From a virus, in the UHGV virus genome UHGV-0007863: 38,717 bases of DNA; one strand, given 5' to 3'. The notes under the pieces were generated by a model. That model was not told where the DNA came from, ran no database searches, and worked only from the letters and a program-made list of their open reading frames with translations. Shown here in pieces: positions 193-38,684 of this stretch (position 1 is its first letter; every line of letters starts with the position of its first letter). Made by a program: the position numbers and the translations under genes.

Positions 193-1449
193 GTGCTTAC
201 CGATACAAAATTAAAAAACCTCAAGCCGCAGGACAAACTGTACAAGGTCTCCGATCGTGACGGGCTGTATGTAGCTGTGCTTACGTCAGGCACGGTCTCG
301 TTTCGCTATGACTACCGTATCAACGGTCGCCGCGAAACACTGGTAATCGGGCAGTATGGGCGTGACGGTATCAGCCTGGCAGAAGCGCGAGAAGAACTGA
401 TTGCTGCAAAGAAGCTGCTTAAAGCAGGCCAGTCACCGGCTGCGGCTAAACGTGACGGTATCAAAAAGATTCGTGGTGCCGAGACGTTTGCGGTACATAC
501 CGACAGTTATATGAAACACGTCATCCTGGCTGACAGTACCCGCGCAATGAAGCAGGCGGTGATCGACCGTGACATACTTCCGGTTCTTGGCAACAAAATG
601 ATGGCTGAAATTACCACATCGATGGTTCGTGATTTGTGTGACCGGATTGTCGAACGCGGTGGTCGGGCAACAGCAGTACAGGCCAGGGAGATCATCAGCA
701 GCGTATACCGTCACGCCAATGACCGTGGTCATGGTTTGTTTAATCCTGCGGCTGACATTAAACCTTCGTCTATCGCCATATTTAAACCACGAGAGCGAAC
801 ACTGACACCAGAAGAAATTGGCCTGTTCTTCCGCACGCTGGATGCCATTGGTGCTATGGGCACTATGAAAATGGCTTTAAAGCTGGTGCTTATCACTATG
901 GTTCGTAAAGGCGAATTCACCAATGCAACGTGGGATGAAATAGATTTTAAAAAATGGACATGGACAATTCCTTCAGACCGCATGAAGGGAAGCCGGGCGC
1001 ACGTTATTTACCTGCCTAAACAGGCACAGGATATATTGGTTGGGTTGCAGATGTGCGCTGGTGGAAGTGAATATCTGGTTCCTGGTCGTTACAATTTCCG
1101 GAAGCCATTATCTAATGCCGCGCTGAACTCTCTGATCGACAGAACGGTGAAAATAATAAATGAAGATGGTGAGCATATTCAGGGCTTCACCGTACACGAT
1201 ATGCGCCGTACAGCCAGTACGTTGTTGCATGAGGCTGGTTATCCTTCAGACTGGATTGAAAAGGCGCTGGCACATGAGCAGAAAGGTGTGCGCGCCGTAT
1301 ATAACAAAGCGGAATACGCCAGACAGCGCGCCTGGATGTTGCAGCAGTGGGCCGATATGATTGATTCCTGGATTAACGGGGAGCATACGGATCTGATTCC
1401 GTTCTCCCCGTCGAAGTTTGAGAGGTGGATGGAAGACAGTAATAAATAA
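193..1449 (+). CDS. int: Tyrosine integrase, P4-type (N-terminal arm-binding domain)
   Basis: 418 aa; N-terminus LTDTKLKNLKP...YRINGRRE typical of P4-like integrases; C-terminal catalytic region with HDMRRT and a conserved Tyr region; GTG start; position at the element end. Confidence 0.9.
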   Translation: MLTDTKLKNLKPQDKLYKVSDRDGLYVAVLTSGTVSFRYDYRINGRRETLVIGQYGRDGISLAEAREELIAAKKLLKAGQSPAAAKRDGIKKIRGAETFAVHTDSYMKHVILADSTRAMKQAVIDRDILPVLGNKMMAEITTSMVRDLCDRIVERGGRATAVQAREIISSVYRHANDRGHGLFNPAADIKPSSIAIFKPRERTLTPEEIGLFFRTLDAIGAMGTMKMALKLVLITMVRKGEFTNATWDEIDFKKWTWTIPSDRMKGSRAHVIYLPKQAQDILVGLQMCAGGSEYLVPGRYNFRKPLSNAALNSLIDRTVKIINEDGEHIQGFTVHDMRRTASTLLHEAGYPSDWIEKALAHEQKGVRAVYNKAEYARQRAWMLQQWADMIDSWINGEHTDLIPFSPSKFERWMEDSNK

Positions 1450-1451
1450 TT

Positions 1452-2111
1452 CTATCCTTCCTGGACTTTGGTAAGCGTCAGATTTCCGCAGAACACTGCG
1501 CCGGTGTCGATGTACATCTGGTTTGCATACACCAGTGGGTGATGTGCTGGCGTATGACCGAAGATGAACAAATCGGCACCGGTTATCTCCGAGACAATAC
1601 CGTCCTGCGCGTCGCTAACCCGCTCACGATTCCATATCACCATTTCTTCTGGTACTGGCTTATCGAATGCGTATTCGTTGTGCGGGTAGTCTGCGTGACA
1701 GATGACGACCTTCTTATTGCCGGTAACCAGTTCGATAATCATCGGGAGGTTGGTAATCTTTGGCAGAAGGTATTTGAGTTGCACATCCTGCTCAGAATCA
1801 AGTTGGTGCCACCATCCACCGCCGTTTGACATCCAATGTCCGAAACTTCCGCCGTTGACCAGTGCATCCAGCATCATCTGCTCATGGTTGCCACGAACAG
1901 CTCGGAACCACGGCATAGTAATCAAATCCAGGCATTCGACGTTTTCAGCGCCGCGGTCAACAAGGTCACCAACGGAAATAAGCAAATCGCGCGCCGGGTC
2001 GAATGAAACTTTGTCGAGTTCGTTCATCAGCAGCGTGTAGCACCCATGCAGATCGCCGACGACGAAGATATTGCACCAGTCAGCGCCATTGATGCGTTGA
2101 TATAGGTTCAT
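1452..2111 (-). CDS. Ser/Thr protein phosphatase, calcineurin-like metallophosphoesterase (lambda NinI / PrpA-like)
   Basis: 219 aa; PPP-family motifs GDLHG, GDLVDRG and GNHE present in order. Confidence 0.85.
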
Positions 2112-2770
2112 GCTGCACGCTCCCGCCCCTGGTTGTCTGTTGGTGACAGCGGAGCATTGCTGAATGCATTTGTTAATCTGGCAATATCCAACGCGTATCC
2201 AGGGTGTAGTTGCACTGCCGGGTCTTCACACTGATTACCCCAAACATCGAAGCCATGAGACGACTGGCGGGCGAACAGTTCAATGCGAGAAACATCGCCT
2301 AACAATTGCACAAGTTTTTCACGAACGACATCTGGTTTTCTTGAGTGCTCAAGCCGCGGTGCGGTAAATGACTGAACGATCCCTGCATTAATGCGCGGAG
2401 GTAGTTTTCCCTTTACCGCAAACAGGCAATCTTCACTATTGGCGCGAGTCATGTGTCCCATACCCATAACCAGTTTATCTGGTTGTCGACTACCACATTT
2501 TATCCACGTGAAGCCCTTCATCGTCATCAGACGAAATCCCCAGGCTTCAACAACTTTTAGTGCTTCGAGTGGTTGTGTTGGCACCCACCACATGGCCAAC
2601 AGACAGTTTTCATCGGCCAAATCCCACACAGGAAGGCGGCAGATATCCAGCACACTCATAACCGGATATTTAAAACCGACACCGCGATTACCATCTGCGG
2701 CTTTGTCCCGGTATACCCAAGGTGGATCTGCATAGATTAGTGTGTATTTCTTAGTCATAAACCACCCCAC
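2108..2770 (-). CDS. MT-A70-family N6-adenine DNA methyltransferase
   Basis: 220 aa; catalytic DPPW motif in IYADPPWVY near the N-terminus; 4-nt ATGA overlap with the downstream phosphatase gene. Confidence 0.8.
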
Positions 2771-3050
2771 AACATCCTATGCCGCTATAGTCGCCACGGC
2801 GAAGGCCGTTACCTTTTGTGATACATTGGTCCCTGCGAACCGCGATCCTTGCACGCTCAACATCACCAGAAGCAACATCCATGCACTGAAGCCAAAGGTG
2901 GGCGGCAATGCGGAACTGCCCTTTTTTCTCTCTTTCAATCGCGCGTTTTTCGATCTCTATCGCCGCAGGAGTAACGGCAACAACCTTTGAAGGGCTGCGC
3001 ATTGAAACCTTGTTCATGTGATATTTTTCAAGTCGGCTTAACTTTCTCAC
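2751..3050 (-). CDS. Hypothetical protein, first gene of the phosphatase/methyltransferase sub-operon
   Basis: 99-aa ORF overlapping the methyltransferase start by 20 nt; an internal Met could be the true start; no recognisable motif. Confidence 0.4.
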   Translation of the reverse strand: MRKLSRLEKYHMNKVSMRSPSKVVAVTPAAIEIEKRAIEREKKGQFRIAAHLWLQCMDVASGDVERARIAVRRDQCITKGNGLRRGDYSGIGCCGVVYD

Positions 3051-3159
3051 TTAATCCAACCCTCTCTGAAAATTAATGCCAGCAGATAAAGCCATGCTGA
3101 AACAGAGGCCAGGAATAAGTACCATCCTGACCATTTGCTCCAGTGCCTTAGCAGCGCAC

Positions 3160-3408
3160 TCATGCAGCGTTGCTCACAGGACGATATACACGTTGCTGAA
3201 CAGGAGGTTTTTTACCCTGGAACTCTGCCGGGCTTGCTGCCTGACGTTCATCAAGCCAACGCTCAACTTCGTCACGGTTCCATGCGCAGCGTTTGTCAGT
3301 GATATACCAGCGTTTAGGAAATTCACCTGCGCGCTCCATACGGTCGATAGTGCTCCATGACAGTGGCACCACCGCCAGGAGTTCCTTCTTACCTAATGCA
3401 CCTTTCAT
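3160..3408 (-). CDS. AlpA-family phage transcriptional regulator / excisionase-like protein
   Basis: 82 aa; LLAVVPLSWSTIDRMERAGEFPKRWYITDKRCAWNRDEVERWL matches the AlpA-type helix-turn-helix pattern. Confidence 0.75.
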   Translation of the reverse strand: MKGALGKKELLAVVPLSWSTIDRMERAGEFPKRWYITDKRCAWNRDEVERWLDERQAASPAEFQGKKPPVQQRVYRPVSNAA

Positions 3409-3457
3409 AAATACCTCTCTTGGTTGCAGTGCGGCGCGCGTGGCGCCGCGGTGGTGG

Positions 3458-4339
3458 TTACATAGATGTTTCGTTTAATTCTTCCCGACGAACGCTGTAA
3501 ACGTCGGTGGCTTTTGCCAGCAGTTCGTCATCATCTGAAAGTTTTTGTGCAATGTATTTGTAAGCCTTATCCAGTTCGGAGACAGTGCTGTAATTCATCG
3601 CTGCGCTGGTAAAGGCCATCAGCATTTCTTCTGGATCACGGCTATCCGCTTTACGCGTTTGCTCATCAGGCTTTTTCGCTGGTTTAGCGTTGATCAGACT
3701 GTTCATTCCCGCAGCAGTGGTCGTTTGCGGAGTAATGTCTCGCTCAACGCGCGGTGCCGTTTCCTGTAATTCGTCAGGGGTGTAAACACCGAGAAGTACA
3801 TCAGGAGCGTGCAGGCGAGCCCATCGTTTCGTGCAAAGATAGGCAAGCTGCTGGCGCGGATCCTGTTCCCACAATGGAGAGTTACGCACTCCGGCTTGCG
3901 CCATACTGATGGTAAGCTCACGGGGTTCTGCTTCTCCTTTAAGAACTGCTGACACAGTTACCGTCAGATTCGGTGATTTATCTGTTTTGCCGTTAACATT
4001 CGACCAGTCACCGCTCCAGCGATAATTCAGGCGTGTCGCTAGCAGGCTGGAAGAGGATACGACCGCGTTTACCAACTGTGCTTCGTAGCCTAACGTTCCG
4101 TTTACCACATGCGTTTTCTGCGCCACGGCGAAAGGGTTCATTCCCCACTGTGCCGCCTGCATGGTCACCGCCAGACAATCGGCAGGTTTGCCTTCAAGAT
4201 GTTTCGGTACAGTCGCTTTGCTTTGTGACATCAACTCCGCGAAACGCACCAGTTGATTCATGCCCTCCGGGCTGAAGATTGCCGCAGCAGTACCTACAGT
4301 TGCGCCTGGTTGTGATGTGATTGCGATATCATTGCTCAT
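3458..4339 (-). CDS. Single-strand annealing protein, Bet/RecT superfamily
   Basis: 293 aa; segment AAQWGMNPF resembles the lambda Bet core (ANQYGLNPW); 4-nt overlap with the upstream exonuclease gene. Confidence 0.65.
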   Translation of the reverse strand: MSNDIAITSQPGATVGTAAAIFSPEGMNQLVRFAELMSQSKATVPKHLEGKPADCLAVTMQAAQWGMNPFAVAQKTHVVNGTLGYEAQLVNAVVSSSSLLATRLNYRWSGDWSNVNGKTDKSPNLTVTVSAVLKGEAEPRELTISMAQAGVRNSPLWEQDPRQQLAYLCTKRWARLHAPDVLLGVYTPDELQETAPRVERDITPQTTTAAGMNSLINAKPAKKPDEQTRKADSRDPEEMLMAFTSAAMNYSTVSELDKAYKYIAQKLSDDDELLAKATDVYSVRREELNETSM

Positions 4340-5157
4340 ACGTACATATCCTGTTTACGTGCCCAGTCAGGGCGTTTAATAATTTCCACTCCGCCCCATT
4401 CATCGTTGATGCGGCATTCGTGATAGGTATTCAGATCCCGGCGGAACAGAGCGTGCCCGGCATCGACATCTGGCGCATCCAGCTCGAACACGCGTACCGG
4501 ATACCGACCACAATCAATGCTTTCGCTCACGGCAAGAAAGAAAAAACCATGCGGCTGACCAGTAACCCTCATTGCGCCTTCGCGGTACATTGCGTCCTGC
4601 ACGTGGTAGCGGAATTCCTCGATGTGGCGTGCAAAACGGTCCATATCTGCAACCTTTTTCACGTCGACGATCACGTTGTGCTCGTTCAGCCATTTGTCTG
4701 GACGAATTCGGCACAACTCACCCGTCTCTTCATCGTTCCAGTACATTGATGCTTCGCAGTAACCAGGTGCTTCCAGCATCCAGCGTGCCGCCGGGTGAGC
4801 CATTGCGCTATCACGCATCAGCTCCAGTTTTCGCCACTGCTCGACATCAAGTACCGTAATACCCATATCCGCCACATCACGAAGAAATGCTTCTTCGTCA
4901 GCTTTACCTTGTTTTGTCCGACGATCGAACTTCGGTGAAACAATGAAGCGTTTGTCGAATTCTCCAGGCTCCAGAAGCAGACAGTGCAATGCGGTTCCCA
5001 TATCCAGTGCAGACTTTTTCTCTTCGTCTTCTGGTGCTGCCTGAACCCATTTCAGAAGGGCAGGGTTCTTAGCCACCATATCTAGCTGCGACTTACTCAC
5101 GCCGTCACCGGCGTGGTAGTCCTCGTTGCTGATATCGAAATAAATTCCCGGATTCAT
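4336..5157 (-). CDS. PD-(D/E)XK exonuclease, RecE C-terminal-domain-like partner of the annealing protein
   Basis: 273 aa; D-x-K signature (IVDVKKV) and synteny with the annealing-protein gene. Confidence 0.65.
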   Translation of the reverse strand: MNPGIYFDISNEDYHAGDGVSKSQLDMVAKNPALLKWVQAAPEDEEKKSALDMGTALHCLLLEPGEFDKRFIVSPKFDRRTKQGKADEEAFLRDVADMGITVLDVEQWRKLELMRDSAMAHPAARWMLEAPGYCEASMYWNDEETGELCRIRPDKWLNEHNVIVDVKKVADMDRFARHIEEFRYHVQDAMYREGAMRVTGQPHGFFFLAVSESIDCGRYPVRVFELDAPDVDAGHALFRRDLNTYHECRINDEWGGVEIIKRPDWARKQDMYV

Positions 5158-33536: not shown

Positions 33537-33537
33537 A

Positions 33538-33562
33538 GGCCGCTTTCGCGGCCTTTTCTTTA
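33538..33562 (+). terminator. Rho-independent terminator after the membrane-protein gene
   Basis: GGCCGC-TTTC-GCGGCC followed by TTTTCTTTAT; overlaps the 3' end of the convergent minus-strand gene. Confidence 0.6.
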
Positions 33563-33817
33563 TGTGGTTTGTTTTCGTAATTGTTCGGCACAATAGTCGA
33601 GATGTGTTTGCAGATCCCGCATAGACATCTGTGAGCTGGTGACGTAGTTAATCAGTGCAGTCAGTTCGGCAAGTGGGCCATCGACATTAAATCCATCCTT
33701 ATCGAGATCCCGGAGTAATTTCATCAAGTGCGATCCTTCCACCAGTGACCTGACGCCTCCCGGCGTGTGAATCCTTTCGGTAAATCCGTCTTCCAGTGGA
33801 TAGTGATACTGCTGCAT
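33560..33817 (-). CDS. Small LexA-box-associated protein; candidate SOS-inducible antirepressor
   Basis: 85 aa from ATG 33817 (MQQYHYPL...), GGAG 8 nt upstream; ORF track gives a TTG start at 33835; a LexA box sits 20-40 nt upstream; function is inference. Confidence 0.5.
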   Translation of the reverse strand: MQQYHYPLEDGFTERIHTPGGVRSLVEGSHLMKLLRDLDKDGFNVDGPLAELTALINYVTSSQMSMRDLQTHLDYCAEQLRKQTT

Positions 33818-33836
33818 CTTATCTTCTCCATGCAAT

Positions 33837-33856
33837 AACTGTATATTTATACAGTA
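33837..33856. promoter_or_regulatory. LexA (SOS) box AACTGTATATTTATACAGTA
   Basis: CTGT-N8-ACAG with AT-rich spacer; 18/20 to the consensus TACTGTATATATATACAGTA; overlaps the likely promoter of the minus-strand gene. Confidence 0.75.
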
Positions 33857-33893
33857 TCAAATAATTTGTTTGCTATCCAGCACGTTTTGCAAA

Positions 33894-33908
33894 TTACCTG
33901 AAAGGTAA
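33894..33908. promoter_or_regulatory. Perfect TTACC-TGAAA-GGTAA upstream of the tail-fiber gene
   Basis: Read directly; a half-site GGTAA at 33955-33959 follows. Confidence 0.6.
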
Positions 33909-34012
33909 TATCTATTCATATTTACAGCCTTTCTATCCATATGTGGTTTTTCAGGTAATAGAATAACCAGATATGCGGCGCAACGGGTGCTGCGACTATC
34001 TGGAGATTTAAC

Positions 34013-36142
34013 ATGACGGTCTCAACCGAAGTTGACCACAACGAATACACCGGTAACGGCGTTACGACATCGTTTCCGTATACTTTTCGAATTTTCAGAA
34101 AATCAGACCTGGTTGTTCAGGTGTCTGACCTGAACGGGAACGTAACAGAATTGGTCCTGGATACCGGTTATACGGTAACTGGGGCGGGCACTTATAGTGG
34201 CGGTTCTGTGGTTCTTCTGTCTCCGCTTGCTACTGGATGGCGAATTACGATAGATCGTGTGCTTGATGTAGTGCAGGAGACAGACCTTCGCAATCAGGGA
34301 AAATTTTTCCCCGAAGTGCATGAAGATGCCTTTGACTACCTGACGATGCTGATCCAGCAATGTTTTGGGTGGTTCAGACGTGCATTGATGAAGCCCTCTC
34401 TGCTTGCAAAATATTACGATGCAAAGCAAAACAGAATTTCTAACCTTGCAGATCCATCACTTGAGCAGGATGCTGTAAATAATCGCTCAATGCGTAATTA
34501 TGTCGATGCTGCAATCGCCGGGGTTGTTGGTGGTTTTGGTTGGTTTATTCAGTATGGTTCTGGGGCTGTGCACCGAACGTTCCAGGATAAGATGAGAGAC
34601 ACCATTAGTGTTCGTGATTTTGGTGCAAAAGGAGACGGCATAACAGATGATACTGTAGCAATTCAAAATGCTATTAATGCAGTACCAGAAGGGGCTATAC
34701 TTGGATTTTATGGTGGTGAATTTGTTTTTGATAAGGTTGAATTGTTTAAGCCAATAACATTAGTTGGTGATGCAACGTTAATTCACAACGGATTTAGAAT
34801 AAAATCTAGCAGAATCCGATCACTTTTATCTGGCGTTCAGAAATGCAAGGATTACTCCGAGTCTTCAAGAGCATTTTATTGCTATGCAAATGAAGACCAA
34901 AGAGATTATGACGATATTCAGATTTTATTTAATAGATTTGAAGGTTTCTTTTACTCTACGGCATTTGTTGCAAAAAACTATTATTTGGAGAATGACCCTA
35001 ATTCAAGAATTGTCAAAAACACAAAAGTAATAGGGTGTACATCAGTTGCTCCTGATTCTGTAAATGCCGGTCATTTTCAACATATAGGCGTTACAAATGC
35101 TGAAACATCACATAACTCAACTTATGGCGGACAAAATGCAACATCATACAACTTCATTAACCAGAATGGATTTGTAAGGATTATAGGAAATTATGACCAT
35201 AACAATAGCTATGGTTCATGTGAGCTTGAGAACTCAATGGTGAGTAACTCAGTCATATCAGGTAATACGTTTTCGTCATATTTATGGGTGGATGATACAA
35301 GTAATGTTACTATTTCTGGAAATACAGTTTCATCAGGGATCAAAGTAACATCGCAAACTGACGATGTTCATAATATAACCATATCAGCAAATACCACAAA
35401 ACGGATTACTATAGAGCAATTTGGAGAATCTCCAACAGGTCTGGTATATGGTGCATTAATTTCCTGCAACACTATTACTGGCGACAGTGATGGAAGTTCA
35501 GACATTTTATGTACGTCACTTGTTACAGGTGAAATTTCATCAAATTATTGTCATGGATCAGAAAAAAATATATCAATTGTCCGCCTGGATTCTTCTGATA
35601 TAACCGTTAGAAACAATAAAGGAAACAAAGGATTACTTACAATAAGTAACGATGGTGGAAGGATAATTGAATATGGCAATGATTCTATGGTTCTGTCTGG
35701 AAGCATAGATAGCAGACATATACATAATTTATTACATCCAGACACATCGTATTTAGATCTACCGGGGAAATATCTGCACGGAACTAAATATACTGGCAGT
35801 ATCCCCCCCGGTTCCACAGGAACTGTATCACTTCAAATACCATCAGGGGCAAGCCTTGTTTTCAGGGGGGTTTCTATATGGGTTCTAATTAGAGATGTTA
35901 GCAATAACAATATATCGTCATTCAGAATTGATGGTTCATATAGAGTTGTTGGTGGAAGTGTTGGTCTTAGTTTTGCTGATGCTTATTCGAAACTCGGGGT
36001 GGATGCAAACTCTATAACAGTGTCAAACAATAACAGCACTTCTGACAATATCAGCATAGCAATTAAAAACACAGATTCATCAAAAACCCTTCAGGTTACT
36101 GTTATGCCGGAGGTTTCAAGCAGGTTAGGTATTGAGGAATAG
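34013..36142 (+). CDS. Tail fiber / tailspike with T7 gp17-like N-terminal adaptor domain and beta-helix-like, AT-rich distal domain
   Basis: 709 aa; N-terminus parallels the T7 tail-fiber N-terminal pattern; distal part has repeats such as NVTISGNTVSSGIKV...NITISANTTK; base composition turns AT-rich from about 34600. Confidence 0.75.
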   Translation: MTVSTEVDHNEYTGNGVTTSFPYTFRIFRKSDLVVQVSDLNGNVTELVLDTGYTVTGAGTYSGGSVVLLSPLATGWRITIDRVLDVVQETDLRNQGKFFPEVHEDAFDYLTMLIQQCFGWFRRALMKPSLLAKYYDAKQNRISNLADPSLEQDAVNNRSMRNYVDAAIAGVVGGFGWFIQYGSGAVHRTFQDKMRDTISVRDFGAKGDGITDDTVAIQNAINAVPEGAILGFYGGEFVFDKVELFKPITLVGDATLIHNGFRIKSSRIRSLLSGVQKCKDYSESSRAFYCYANEDQRDYDDIQILFNRFEGFFYSTAFVAKNYYLENDPNSRIVKNTKVIGCTSVAPDSVNAGHFQHIGVTNAETSHNSTYGGQNATSYNFINQNGFVRIIGNYDHNNSYGSCELENSMVSNSVISGNTFSSYLWVDDTSNVTISGNTVSSGIKVTSQTDDVHNITISANTTKRITIEQFGESPTGLVYGALISCNTITGDSDGSSDILCTSLVTGEISSNYCHGSEKNISIVRLDSSDITVRNNKGNKGLLTISNDGGRIIEYGNDSMVLSGSIDSRHIHNLLHPDTSYLDLPGKYLHGTKYTGSIPPGSTGTVSLQIPSGASLVFRGVSIWVLIRDVSNNNISSFRIDGSYRVVGGSVGLSFADAYSKLGVDANSITVSNNNSTSDNISIAIKNTDSSKTLQVTVMPEVSSRLGIEE

Positions 36143-36170
36143 CATCATATATAATTATTTTAATGTTAAT

Positions 36171-36197
36171 GCCGTCTTCTTGTTGGCGGCTTATTTG
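36171..36197 (+). terminator. Terminator-like hairpin after the tail-fiber gene
   Basis: GCCGTC-N8-GGCGGC (one G-U pair) followed by TTATTT. Confidence 0.45.
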
Positions 36198-36218
36198 TGA
36201 AAATCGAATGAGTTATCT

Positions 36219-36518
36219 ATGATGAATATAGAAGTTGATATAACACCAATTCTTCACGCACTTTGCGCTGTTGTCGCACAAGTTCTTGTTGGTCTTTTTA
36301 CCGGAAACTGGGCTTACGGTGCGATAGCCGGTTGTACGTTCTTCATTGCGCGTGAACACACCCAGGCAGAATATCGCTGGATAGAAAAGTTTGGGAAAGG
36401 GAAACGTATCAACATGCCGTGGTGGGGAGGTTTTGATCCGCGCGTATGGGATGTTGGAAGCCTGTTTGACTTTGTTGTTCCTGTTACTGTTTGTTTTTGT
36501 GTTTATTTCTCTATTTGA
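36219..36518 (+). CDS. Hypothetical membrane protein between tail fiber and lysis cassette
   Basis: 99 aa with hydrophobic N- and C-terminal segments; weak Shine-Dalgarno. Confidence 0.45.
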   Translation: MMNIEVDITPILHALCAVVAQVLVGLFTGNWAYGAIAGCTFFIAREHTQAEYRWIEKFGKGKRINMPWWGGFDPRVWDVGSLFDFVVPVTVCFCVYFSI

Positions 36519-36740
36519 CTGCTACCGCGCCATTTGATGGTGCGGAATTCAACTAATCCTCTATATTTTGAATCATTTCTGTACTGCAATCTCTTCAGAG
36601 TTATGTAAAAGGCAAGCCTTATTATCGACATGAAAGGAAGGGGATTGACAATACATGGGTAACAAAAAACCATAAATGGTTTATCATGCATAATGCCTTT
36701 ACTATTCAGGAGGTAGTTATGCATATAAACGGTGGAAAAC

Positions 36741-37145
36741 ATGTCAGCTCAACTAACCAGTGAAACTTTAAATCAGTGGCTTAGCATGAGTTCTCTGGCG
36801 GCGGTGATAGCAGGAGTTCCTCCTGAGGTTGCTTTGGGGGCTTTGGCTGGGGCGGTAATTTTTGTTACCTCTGCGGTAGAGTATCCTATTCGTCGTCGTG
36901 TACTCTTGTCGATGCTTAGCTTTCTCTGCGGCCTTCTTTTTTATAAACCAGCAGCATCAATTCTTATCGGCATAGCCAGCCTGATCCCTACCATCACGCA
37001 GGACTCTTTTGAAAAAGGGATTGTTTTCTCAGTTGGCGCATTCGTGTCAGCAATTGTTGCTGTGCGTATTGGTATATGGCTCTATCACCGTTCCGATAAT
37101 CCACGCGAGTTAATTCCGGGGAGAAAAGACGATGGTAACGCATGA
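36741..37145 (+). CDS. Putative holin
   Basis: ATG 36741 with GGTGG 5 nt upstream; ~134 aa with three to four hydrophobic helices and a charged C-terminus; first gene of the lysis cassette. Confidence 0.55.
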   Translation: MSAQLTSETLNQWLSMSSLAAVIAGVPPEVALGALAGAVIFVTSAVEYPIRRRVLLSMLSFLCGLLFYKPAASILIGIASLIPTITQDSFEKGIVFSVGAFVSAIVAVRIGIWLYHRSDNPRELIPGRKDDGNA

Positions 37146-37440
37146 GTTTTTTTTGCTTATCACCAATGCAGTTATTTGTACTGGCATAGCAATTCGCGTT
37201 GTCACATTCCGGCGTAACGGCTCTCAACATCGAAGATGGGGAGGGTGGCTTGCTTATTTCCTTATTGTTGCTGCGGCCAGTATTCCTGTTCGTGTCGTCT
37301 ATGCAATCTGGTTACGCACGCCAATGGCTGTGGATTTATCTGAGGTCATTATCAACGCTGTCATGCTCGCCGCGGTTATTAAAACACGCGGTAACGTTGT
37401 TCAGATTTTCAAAATATCGAGGTCTAAACATGGAGATTAA
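37132..37440 (+). CDS. Second small membrane protein of the lysis cassette (holin or antiholin-like)
   Basis: 102 aa with at least two transmembrane segments; overlapping stop/start with holin and endolysin. Confidence 0.45.
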
Positions 37441-38059
37441 ACAATTCCAGCGAGCTGCTGGTATTAGCGAGTCGCTGGCCGCACGCTGGTTCTCGCATAT
37501 AACTTCTGCGATGAAAGAGTTTGGTATCAGCAAAGCAGAAGATCAGGCAATGTTTATTGCTCAGGTCGGGCATGAGTCTGGGGGCTTCACCCGGTTGCAG
37601 GAGAATTTCAACTACAGCGTCAGCGGTCTGGCTAACTTTGTTCGGGCTGGGCGTCTCACTCAGGGACAGGCCAACGCATTGGGGCGACGCGCAGGCGAAC
37701 CACCATTGCCACCTGAGCGCCAGAGAGCGATTGCCAATCTGGTGTACAGCAAACGCATGGGTAACAATGCTCCTGGCGATGGCTGGAACTACCGTGGGCG
37801 CGGACTTATCCAGATTACCGGTTTGAATAACTATCGTGATTGTGGAAACGCTCTTAAGGTTGACCTGCTGGAGAGTCCTGAATTGCTGGCGCAGGACGAA
37901 TACGCGGCTCGTAGCGCGGCGTGGTTCTTCTCCAGCAAAGGCTGCATGAAGTATACCGGAGATATTGCACGTGTAACTCTGCTTATCAATGGTGGCCGGA
38001 ACGGCATTGATGACCGGCGCGCGCGATACATCACTGCCAGTAAGGTGCTGGCGTTATGA
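37430..38059 (+). CDS. Endolysin, glycoside hydrolase family 19-like (chitinase-fold lysozyme)
   Basis: ATG 37430 in frame within ORF 37199-38059; motifs [12 protein letters not shown] and [12 protein letters not shown] recalled as typical of GH19-type endolysins; position between holin and spanins. Confidence 0.65.
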
Positions 38060-38553
38060 TCTGGGCATTCGCAAAAGCATACTGGAAACAGTTGGTTATC
38101 ATGGCGATGCTTGCTGTTCTGGTCATATCAGGAGTTGTAGCCTGGAATGCACACGGCATTCGTCAGTACGACGCCGGGTATGCGCAGGCACAGGAAGATC
38201 AGAAACAGGCTGATGATAAGGCCAGGTCACAACGTGATCAGGAGAAAACACAAATTGAACGTGAAGCACAATCCCGTATCGATGTGGCGCGTGTTGATGC
38301 TGAGCATGCTAATGCCGCTGCTGACAGCCTGCGCGCCGAGCTTGACAAAACCAAGCGACTCGCCGAACACTATACCGGATCTTTCCCCACTGGCACGCCA
38401 GCCAGCAAGGTCATCGGTGTGCTCGCCGACATGCTTGAAGAAAGCAACCGAGTTTACAACGCAACAGCAACTGAGGCTGAAAAGTATCGGATTGCAGGAG
38501 AATCCTGCGAACAGCAATACGATTCACTGAAGAAGCAAAAATCGTGGCACTGA
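38056..38553 (+). CDS. i-spanin (Rz-like)
   Basis: 165 aa; N-terminal transmembrane helix, charged coiled-coil periplasmic domain; immediately after the endolysin. Confidence 0.65.
38282..38530 (+). CDS. o-spanin (Rz1-like lipoprotein) nested in the +1 frame of the i-spanin gene
   Basis: [16 protein letters not shown]|C lipobox-type signal, Pro-rich mature region; entirely inside 38056-38553. Confidence 0.6.
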   Translation: MWRVLMLSMLMPLLTACAPSLTKPSDSPNTIPDLSPLARQPARSSVCSPTCLKKATEFTTQQQLRLKSIGLQENPANSNTIH

Positions 38554-38558
38554 TTTCC

Positions 38559-38569
38559 GGTGACGGTAT
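38559..38569. repeat. GGTGACGGTAT, copy of the left-end arm-like 11-mer
   Basis: Identical to 126-136; followed by a partial repeat AACGGTACGGTG. Confidence 0.3.
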
Positions 38570-38684
38570 ATAAAACGGTACGGTGAAAATCAGGTTGCAG
38601 AAAGTTATTATCAGTCAATTGGTTATGTGTGTCGTAAATAATTGAGTGGGAATGATTTTGATCCCTGCACTATGAATGAACAAA

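Follow-up and report, generated by a model that had tools for sequence, protein, structure and literature searches.

What produces the abrupt change of base composition inside the tailspike gene of the virus genome UHGV-0007863, and does it mark the point at which a foreign host-range module was joined to a resident virion anchor? The gene lies at 34013..36142 (+ strand) of the window, the whole stretch of 38,717 nucleotides (nt) that was analysed. It encodes 709 amino acids (aa) in the open reading frame (ORF) list, matches the PHROG tail-protein families 13893 and 20231, and is the equivalent of orf6 of Escherichia phage phiv142-3 (MN187550, QGF19612.1, 'putative tail fiber protein'), to which the gene region is 99.6% identical in nucleotides. 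Sequence comparison assigns the window to the temperate Escherichia coli podophages of the genus Uetakevirus (epsilon15/phiV10-like), nearly identical to phiv142-3. It is collinear with phiv142-3 and with vB_EcoP_ZX5 (ZX5), both classed as Uetakevirus, and the tailspike gene is found 3' of the injection-protein genes and a divergent regulatory region and 5' of the holin, endolysin and Rz genes of a ~39-kb podophage. The tailspike is a chimera, in which a lineage-typical anchor is joined at codon 198 to a horizontally exchanged, AT-rich beta-helix module. Very probably, the single tailspike of this Uetakevirus combines a genus-conserved anchor with a foreign, cassette-borne host-range module that would bind polysaccharide and probably cleave it.

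The composition break is genuine, has strong statistical support and is due for the most part to synonymous positions. In 200-nt windows, the guanine-plus-cytosine (GC) content starts at 0.44-0.51 in the opening ~600 nt of the gene and then drops to 0.32-0.37 through most of the rest, to ~35800. The profile is not uniform: its maximum-likelihood change-point within the gene falls at nt 34640 (log-likelihood ratio 11.0), which separates a GC of 0.469 on the left from 0.359 on the right. GC at the first, second and third codon positions (GC1, GC2 and GC3) is 0.565/0.407/0.435 left of 34640 and 0.409/0.417/0.251 right of it, GC2 being essentially constant. The distal 1.5 kb of the gene is the lowest-GC stretch of that length in the 38.7-kb window (0.357; mean 0.489, standard deviation 0.034). 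All 500-nt windows with GC below 0.41 fall in 34501-36250, and the GC3 of the tailspike gene (0.306) is the lowest among 31 long ORFs (range 0.40-0.61). An earlier note on this DNA had placed a break in the tail-fibre gene at about 34600, after some 200 codons of typical phage GC content. Both the change-point and the homology breakpoint at 34603/34604 described below agree with it. The same note spoke of long AAT/ATT/TTA runs. These codons are indeed enriched in the module (11.5% against 4%), but never stand more than three in a row; ATA is enriched as well (4.3% against 0.5%). The beta-helix-like repeats it mentioned amount to four IS[GAC]NT motifs at a rung-like spacing of 19-26 residues, so that the claim was overstated.

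Because Asn, Ser, Ile and Thr abound in beta-helices, the AT-richness could be due to the protein itself, with no foreign origin and no transfer. Asn, Ser and Ile are commoner in the module than in the anchor, amino-acid composition alone takes the expected GC from 0.487 to 0.449, and a GC drop from the N-terminal part to the module is also seen in some homologues, as in Aeromonas phage P05B (0.553 to 0.432). Each part of the gene was back-translated with the codon usage of the phage's other genes. The GC3 observed in the module was 0.248 against an expected 0.472 +/- 0.022 (z = -10.3), while the first 197 codons were unremarkable (z = -1.4). Most of the GC drop is thus synonymous, since the module lies about ten standard deviations below the GC3 expected from its own amino acids and the codons of the phage. 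Homologous modules with normal GC3 are also known: values in the family extend from 0.25 in the window to 0.52 in L015 and 0.54 in fBC-Eco01, and the protein family therefore does not impose AT-richness. Further, the module is common to unrelated anchors at 98-99% nt identity with a fixed breakpoint. Amino-acid composition as the cause is ruled out by the codon-usage simulation, the normal-GC homologues and the cross-anchor identity, and an origin without transfer has a close to negligible likelihood.

The joint was located by comparison with phages that carry only one of the two halves. The same-genus phages ZX5 and HEMP4 and the Phi05 contigs are similar to the gene (93-98% identity) in its first 536-610 nt only. 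By blastn, the homology of ZX5 to the window is restricted to 33560-34608 (98.1%) and 36717-38657 (85.2%), and the segment between them, 34609..36716 (+ strand), is the host-range cassette as seen within the genus. The distal 510 residues, searched against 5.8 billion proteins, retrieved ~110 clusters of 663-aa E. coli proteins that are 98-100% identical over the module and have the P22-type head-binding domain PF09008 as N-terminus. One 675-aa protein from the same search has a PF18668 N-terminus in its place. PF09008 was not found in the window protein by Pfam scan. At the DNA level, the P22-like prophages are 98-99% identical to the window from exactly 34603 to 36463-36473, and a PF18668-anchor contig shares the module from 34603 to the contig end at 36283, again at 98-99%. 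The left breakpoint is therefore 34608/34609 against ZX5 and 34603 (34603/34604, codon 198) against the P22-like and PF18668 carriers. In a three-way alignment, the two positions enclose the 5-nt microhomology ATTAG (34604..34608, + strand; Ile198-Ser199), the recombination joint. It opens the motif IS.(R/K)DFGA.GDGI.DD, which is also present in the otherwise unrelated module of ZX5, and the first ~57 module residues, motif included, match many other proteins in an exhaustive HMMER search. Such a short conserved opening of beta-helix modules would be a plausible in-frame crossover site.

In all three backgrounds (Uetakevirus, P22-like and PF18668) the module is followed by the same spacer and then by the same 99-aa ORF, the start of which is also seen on the PF18668-anchor contig. 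The P22-like (Lederbergvirus) E. coli prophage tailspikes share the distal module (98-100% in amino acids, 98-99% in nucleotides) and the following ORF with the window; their anchor, a P22 head-binding domain with a ~40-aa neck, is wholly different, as is the phage backbone. Phages phiv142-3 and EC.W1-9 represent the other extreme: the whole gene is 99.4-99.6% identical in nucleotides, and anchor, module, downstream 99-aa ORF and lysis genes are all as in the window. Among complete E. coli genomes the module was present in 37 of 5,426, always on the chromosome, mostly on a Uetakevirus anchor and in some cases on a P22-type one. The distal domain thus belongs to more than the lineage of the N-terminal domain, and the horizontal exchange proposed in the earlier note is borne out by its occurrence on two other, unrelated anchors and by the different modules of same-genus phages. 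The extra ~40-aa neck (LASSGDDLGDALIAVKQPFTLSIRRTQHQKNAEH) upstream of the ISVRDFGAKGDG motif is shared by the P22-type and PF18668-type carriers and is missing from the Uetakevirus version; the unit exchanged between the former two was therefore longer than the one on the epsilon15-type anchor. Some copies are disrupted. The tailspike of EC.W1-9 (3001-5129) is annotated as two ORFs, an 'eliminase' and a hypothetical protein, and that of E. coli XH993 has an IS1 element within the module.

The anchor (aa 1-197; 34013..34603, + strand; GC 0.47) is of the epsilon15/Uetakevirus type and comprises a beta-sandwich (aa 9-82) and helical coiled-coil segments (aa 103-126 and 157-171). Over aa 1-165 it shares 71.5% identity with the epsilon15 tail protein, and it is 93-99% identical to the anchors of the E. 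coli Uetakeviruses HEMP4, ZX5 and Phi05, which bear other distal modules. Epsilon15 gp20 and the phiV10-group tailspikes, including the K1 endosialidase of ZX5, have anchors 68-98% identical over aa 1-165/197 and share the genome position and single-spike architecture of the window; their distal modules, however, are unrelated past the opening DFGA.GDG motif, and the 99-aa ORF was not found in ZX5. Comparable anchors are found in phiV10-group, Enterobacter, Klebsiella, Pseudomonas, Xanthomonas, Bordetella BPP-1 and Pelagibacter podophages, and Autographiviridae are missing from the sequence-level relatives that were listed. The anchor matched more than 20 PHROG tail families, only via their first ~160-200 residues. 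A protein-database search with the anchor as query yielded truncated sequences for the most part, and the range of distal modules was judged from the PHROG and tblastn results. The closest solved relative is the D1-D2 region of the Cobetia phage Carin1 tail fibre Dpo31 (E 5e-41, family profile), in which a D1 beta-sandwich and a D2 coiled coil fix the spike to the tail of the phage and which is trimeric in the crystal structure (PMC13317679). By analogy with this homologue, the window tailspike is presumed to be a trimer.

The N-terminal part had earlier been described as T7-like, a description that fails as to lineage and keeps some value as to fold. The Pfam family of the T7 tail fibre N-terminus, PF03906, stayed below its cut-off of 25.2 bits, whether matched to the full protein (14.6 bits) or to aa 1-215 (18.8 bits). 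The alignment was confined to profile positions 123-149 of 157, a ~27-residue motif at aa 135-161, and the same weak match was obtained in all 32 members of the anchor family (best E 5e-7). The AlphaFold2 (AF2) model of the anchor has a mean predicted local distance difference test (pLDDT) score of only 62.5, with the beta-sandwich of aa 9-82 at ~86 and helices after it. Searched with Foldseek, this model found Carin1 and T7-like fibre N-termini, including the T7 gp17 structures 7boz, 7ey9 and 8dsp, among its top matches. The T7-like matches had E of 1e-4 to 1e-3, probability ~1.0, TM(target) 0.4-0.5 and 14-24% identity, for a query of which only the beta-sandwich is confident. The low-confidence predicted fold may thus match that of the T7 gp17 N-terminal domain (PF03906; 7boz, 7ey9), but the Pfam score stays under the gathering threshold, identity to gp17 itself is only 14-17%, and the window phage is not an Autographivirus. 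The likeness is one of distant homology and not a lineage relationship.

The family of the module is small, with 34 clusters at E <= 1e-30 in the exhaustive HMMER search of 1.84 billion representatives, in which the nearest non-identical member was 62% identical. Diverged members stand on Kagunavirus, Gamaleyavirus (the C-terminus of St11Ph5 gp66), Vectrevirus, Aeromonas-phage, PF27114, PF12571 and even PF03906 anchors. The C-terminus of St11Ph5 gp66 and the spikes of Kagunavirus fBC-Eco01, Vectrevirus (552 aa) and Aeromonas phages belong to the family along the whole 512-residue module, with 47-52% identity; they differ in their anchors, in a higher GC3 (0.32-0.54) and probably in specificity. 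In P05B, an Aeromonas phage of 56% GC, the spike gene (1382-4000) carries a 51%-identical module and shows the fall in GC already given. Several members of the family look compositionally foreign in their carriers.

The module was modelled by AF2 from 29 sequences of 47-99% identity, with a pLDDT of 88 over its 512 residues: a beta-helix (module residues 1-365), a low-confidence linker (378-392, pLDDT below 50) and a beta-sandwich (396-504, strands at ~86-91). In the protein, these correspond to a right-handed parallel beta-helix at aa 198-562 (34604..35698), presumably the polysaccharide-binding or depolymerase body, a probably flexible linker at aa 563-592 (35699..35788) and a C-terminal beta-sandwich domain at aa 593-709 (35789..36142 with the stop codon), all on the + strand. 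The C-terminal domain is conserved in the family, with 57% mean identity and the end ...QVTVMPEVSSRLG.EE. The tailspike-type beta-helix suggested earlier as a receptor-binding or depolymerase fold is thus confidently predicted, and the nearest folds are those of tailspike depolymerases such as Sf6 and HK620. The most conserved stretch over 25 diverged homologues is aa 348-432 (35054..35308, + strand), and H357, Y400, E404, E406, W425, D427 and D428 are invariant across them, on successive predicted rungs. The active sites of the Sf6, HK620 and P22 tailspikes use acid pairs. By analogy, aa 348-432 with E404/E406 and D427/D428 would be a candidate active site or binding groove. The endoglycosidase tailspikes of Sf6, HK620 and P22 and the capsule depolymerases (2vbm, 2vji, 5w5p, 6e0v) have the right-handed parallel beta-helix fold and the acidic residue pairs on adjacent rungs that are predicted for the module; they are, however, only 10-17% identical to it and share no sequence family with it. 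No match to the GH28 catalytic domain PF00295 was obtained at E <= 1 (the NCBI name is 'GH28-related'). The NCBIfam rhamnogalacturonidase model gave 23.6 bits against a cut-off of 500, over its first 54 positions only, and no glycoside-hydrolase or lyase family model of Pfam or NCBIfam was matched past the first 58 module residues. The endosialidase family PF12218 stayed under its cut-off of 26.3 bits, with a score of 18.8 over just 26 residues, and a beta-propeller was neither matched nor predicted.

Several observations weigh against the view that a foreign module sets host range by binding, and probably cleaving, polysaccharide. The fold matches of the module are generic (10-18% identity) and span epimerases, lyases and hydrolases, and the fold therefore fails to discriminate its chemistry; of the 'beta-helix glycosidase' that the earlier note had in mind, the beta-helix is retained and the glycosidase is conjectural. 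A low-GC donor was not found by tblastn in 50,697 phage records, by HMMER in the 1.84 billion representatives or in an IMG/VR scan, and the carriers of near-identical cassettes all have 43-49% GC backbones. When Uetakevirus carriers are compared, identity in the flanks reaches ~98-99% as well, except in endolysin and Rz, and the cassette is not detectably younger than the DNA around it. Lastly, copies at least 95% identical are found in prophages of O1, O5, O51 and O102 strains, for which a shared receptor such as capsule has been proposed (PMC10408124), so that simple O-antigen specificity is doubtful. The host of phiv142-3 is O2 (PMC7724020). The same survey files the receptor-binding protein with St11Ph5 gp66 under the unassigned subtype X1, and the modularity of this protein has been published there (PMC10408124).

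This spread over serogroups is what would be expected if the module were a non-enzymatic adhesin for a receptor common to many of them (capsule, enterobacterial common antigen, lipopolysaccharide [LPS] core or a protein), with no depolymerisation of O-antigen. It would also fit such an adhesin that resistance to St11Ph5, a phage with a 47%-identical gp66 C-terminus, arises in mutants with an unaltered LPS profile (PMC6393563), that the fold matches include beta-helix adhesins such as PfbA (21-24% identity), and that hydrolase and lyase families are absent past the opening of the module. However, the dense invariant block of acidic and polar residues (E404, E406, D427, D428, H357 and Y400) resembles the acid pairs of Sf6, HK620 and P22. 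Lysogens could also come to differ in serogroup through a later switch of O-antigen or through modification encoded by the prophage. Moreover, a second spike is present in St11Ph5, and an identity of 47% is too low to establish a common specificity. On balance, a purely adhesive module is unlikely, though it is the strongest of the alternatives. A role outside infection has to be weighed as well, namely that in lysogens the gene is mainly a bacterial fitness factor, for iron acquisition and growth in serum, and not a determinant of host range. In the avian pathogenic E. coli lysogen DE142, orf6 is up-regulated in chicken serum, its deletion reduces growth in serum and under iron limitation, and complementation restores growth (PMC7724020). 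This evidence comes from one study, whereas the protein is built throughout like a virion tailspike and its gene lies in the tail/lysis block. The serum phenotype is also compatible with a structural role, and the adjacent 99-aa ORF or prophage induction could be an alternative route to it. A predominantly bacterial function is accordingly very unlikely.

A host-range module on a genus-conserved anchor thus remains the preferred explanation. Residues 1-197 would fix the presumably trimeric spike to the tail, and at codon 198 the anchor would pass into a foreign 512-residue unit of beta-helix, linker and C-terminal beta-sandwich. This unit would bind a host surface polysaccharide, probably cleave it, and thereby set host range. 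It may have arrived in a cassette of ~1.9-2.1 kb together with a terminator-like hairpin and the gene for the 99-aa membrane protein. Homeologous recombination at the 5-nt microhomology could swap modules in frame, because the joint lies in the motif IS.(R/K)DFGA.GDG, which opens many beta-helix modules. The module would have kept the codon usage of a low-GC source, hence the composition break.

The 99-aa predicted membrane protein (36219..36518, + strand; phiv142-3 orf5, PHROG 1443) travels with the module, and its gene is 98-99% identical in nucleotides to that of the P22-like carriers up to 36463-36473. No Pfam, NCBIfam or PADLOC match was obtained for it, PHROG 1443 being the only family. 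Consensus scans predict a terminator-like hairpin inside the exchanged cassette at 36171..36190 (+ strand), 29 nt past the tailspike stop codon, and a promoter-like site at 36195-36223 that overlaps the start of the ORF; this order suggests that the ORF may be transcribed independently. Homologues at ~85% nt identity are present in ~1,900 of the 5,426 E. coli genomes. In the three examined (Nissle 1917, ATCC 11775 and Ecol_448), the homologue follows the side-tail-fibre genes directly and is in each case the final gene of a lambdoid prophage. The ORF is thus a recurrent gene immediately 3' of a receptor-binding protein. A two-gene host-range cassette might then be the unit of exchange, its module targeting a surface glycan other than O-antigen (for example, capsule or a polysaccharide common to O1, O2, O5, O51 and O102) and the 99-aa protein acting as its functional partner. 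We regard this as a rather improbable, speculative extension. If true, the 99-aa protein might mask or modify the receptor or exclude superinfection in lysogens, and its partner role could underlie the serum-fitness phenotype.

Outside the cassette, the window differs from its closest relatives at both sides. Upstream, phiv142-3 has ~1.95 kb (orf8-orf11, the antirepressor region with a putative anti-repressor) which the window lacks; the deletion joint is at 33560-33562, directly past a strong terminator-like hairpin at 33537-33554. Downstream of the tailspike gene lie holin-like, endolysin and Rz-like genes, and here the endolysin and Rz regions of the window have diverged from those of phiv142-3 and EC.W1-9, at 96% and 78%. 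Relative to the other carriers of the same tailspike, the lysis region (37430-38553) is mosaic. The endolysin is only ~95-96% identical and the Rz-like gene (38056-38553) ~78% identical over half its length, with the adjoining genes at ~99%.

The exchange of distal tailspike modules on genus-conserved anchors is a textbook route of host-range change. The chimeric architecture, the horizontal spread and this very protein have already been documented, and the composition break is their expected signature. What is added here is modest: a nucleotide-exact joint common to three anchor types, the synonymous nature of the AT bias, and the constant linkage of the module to the 99-aa membrane ORF. Tailspike modules decide which strains can be infected, and exact in-frame breakpoints such as codon 198, used with three anchor types, are practical splice points for the engineering of phages and tailocins. 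Prophages of clinical and avian E. coli often carry this module, and identification of its receptor would fill a gap in host-range prediction.

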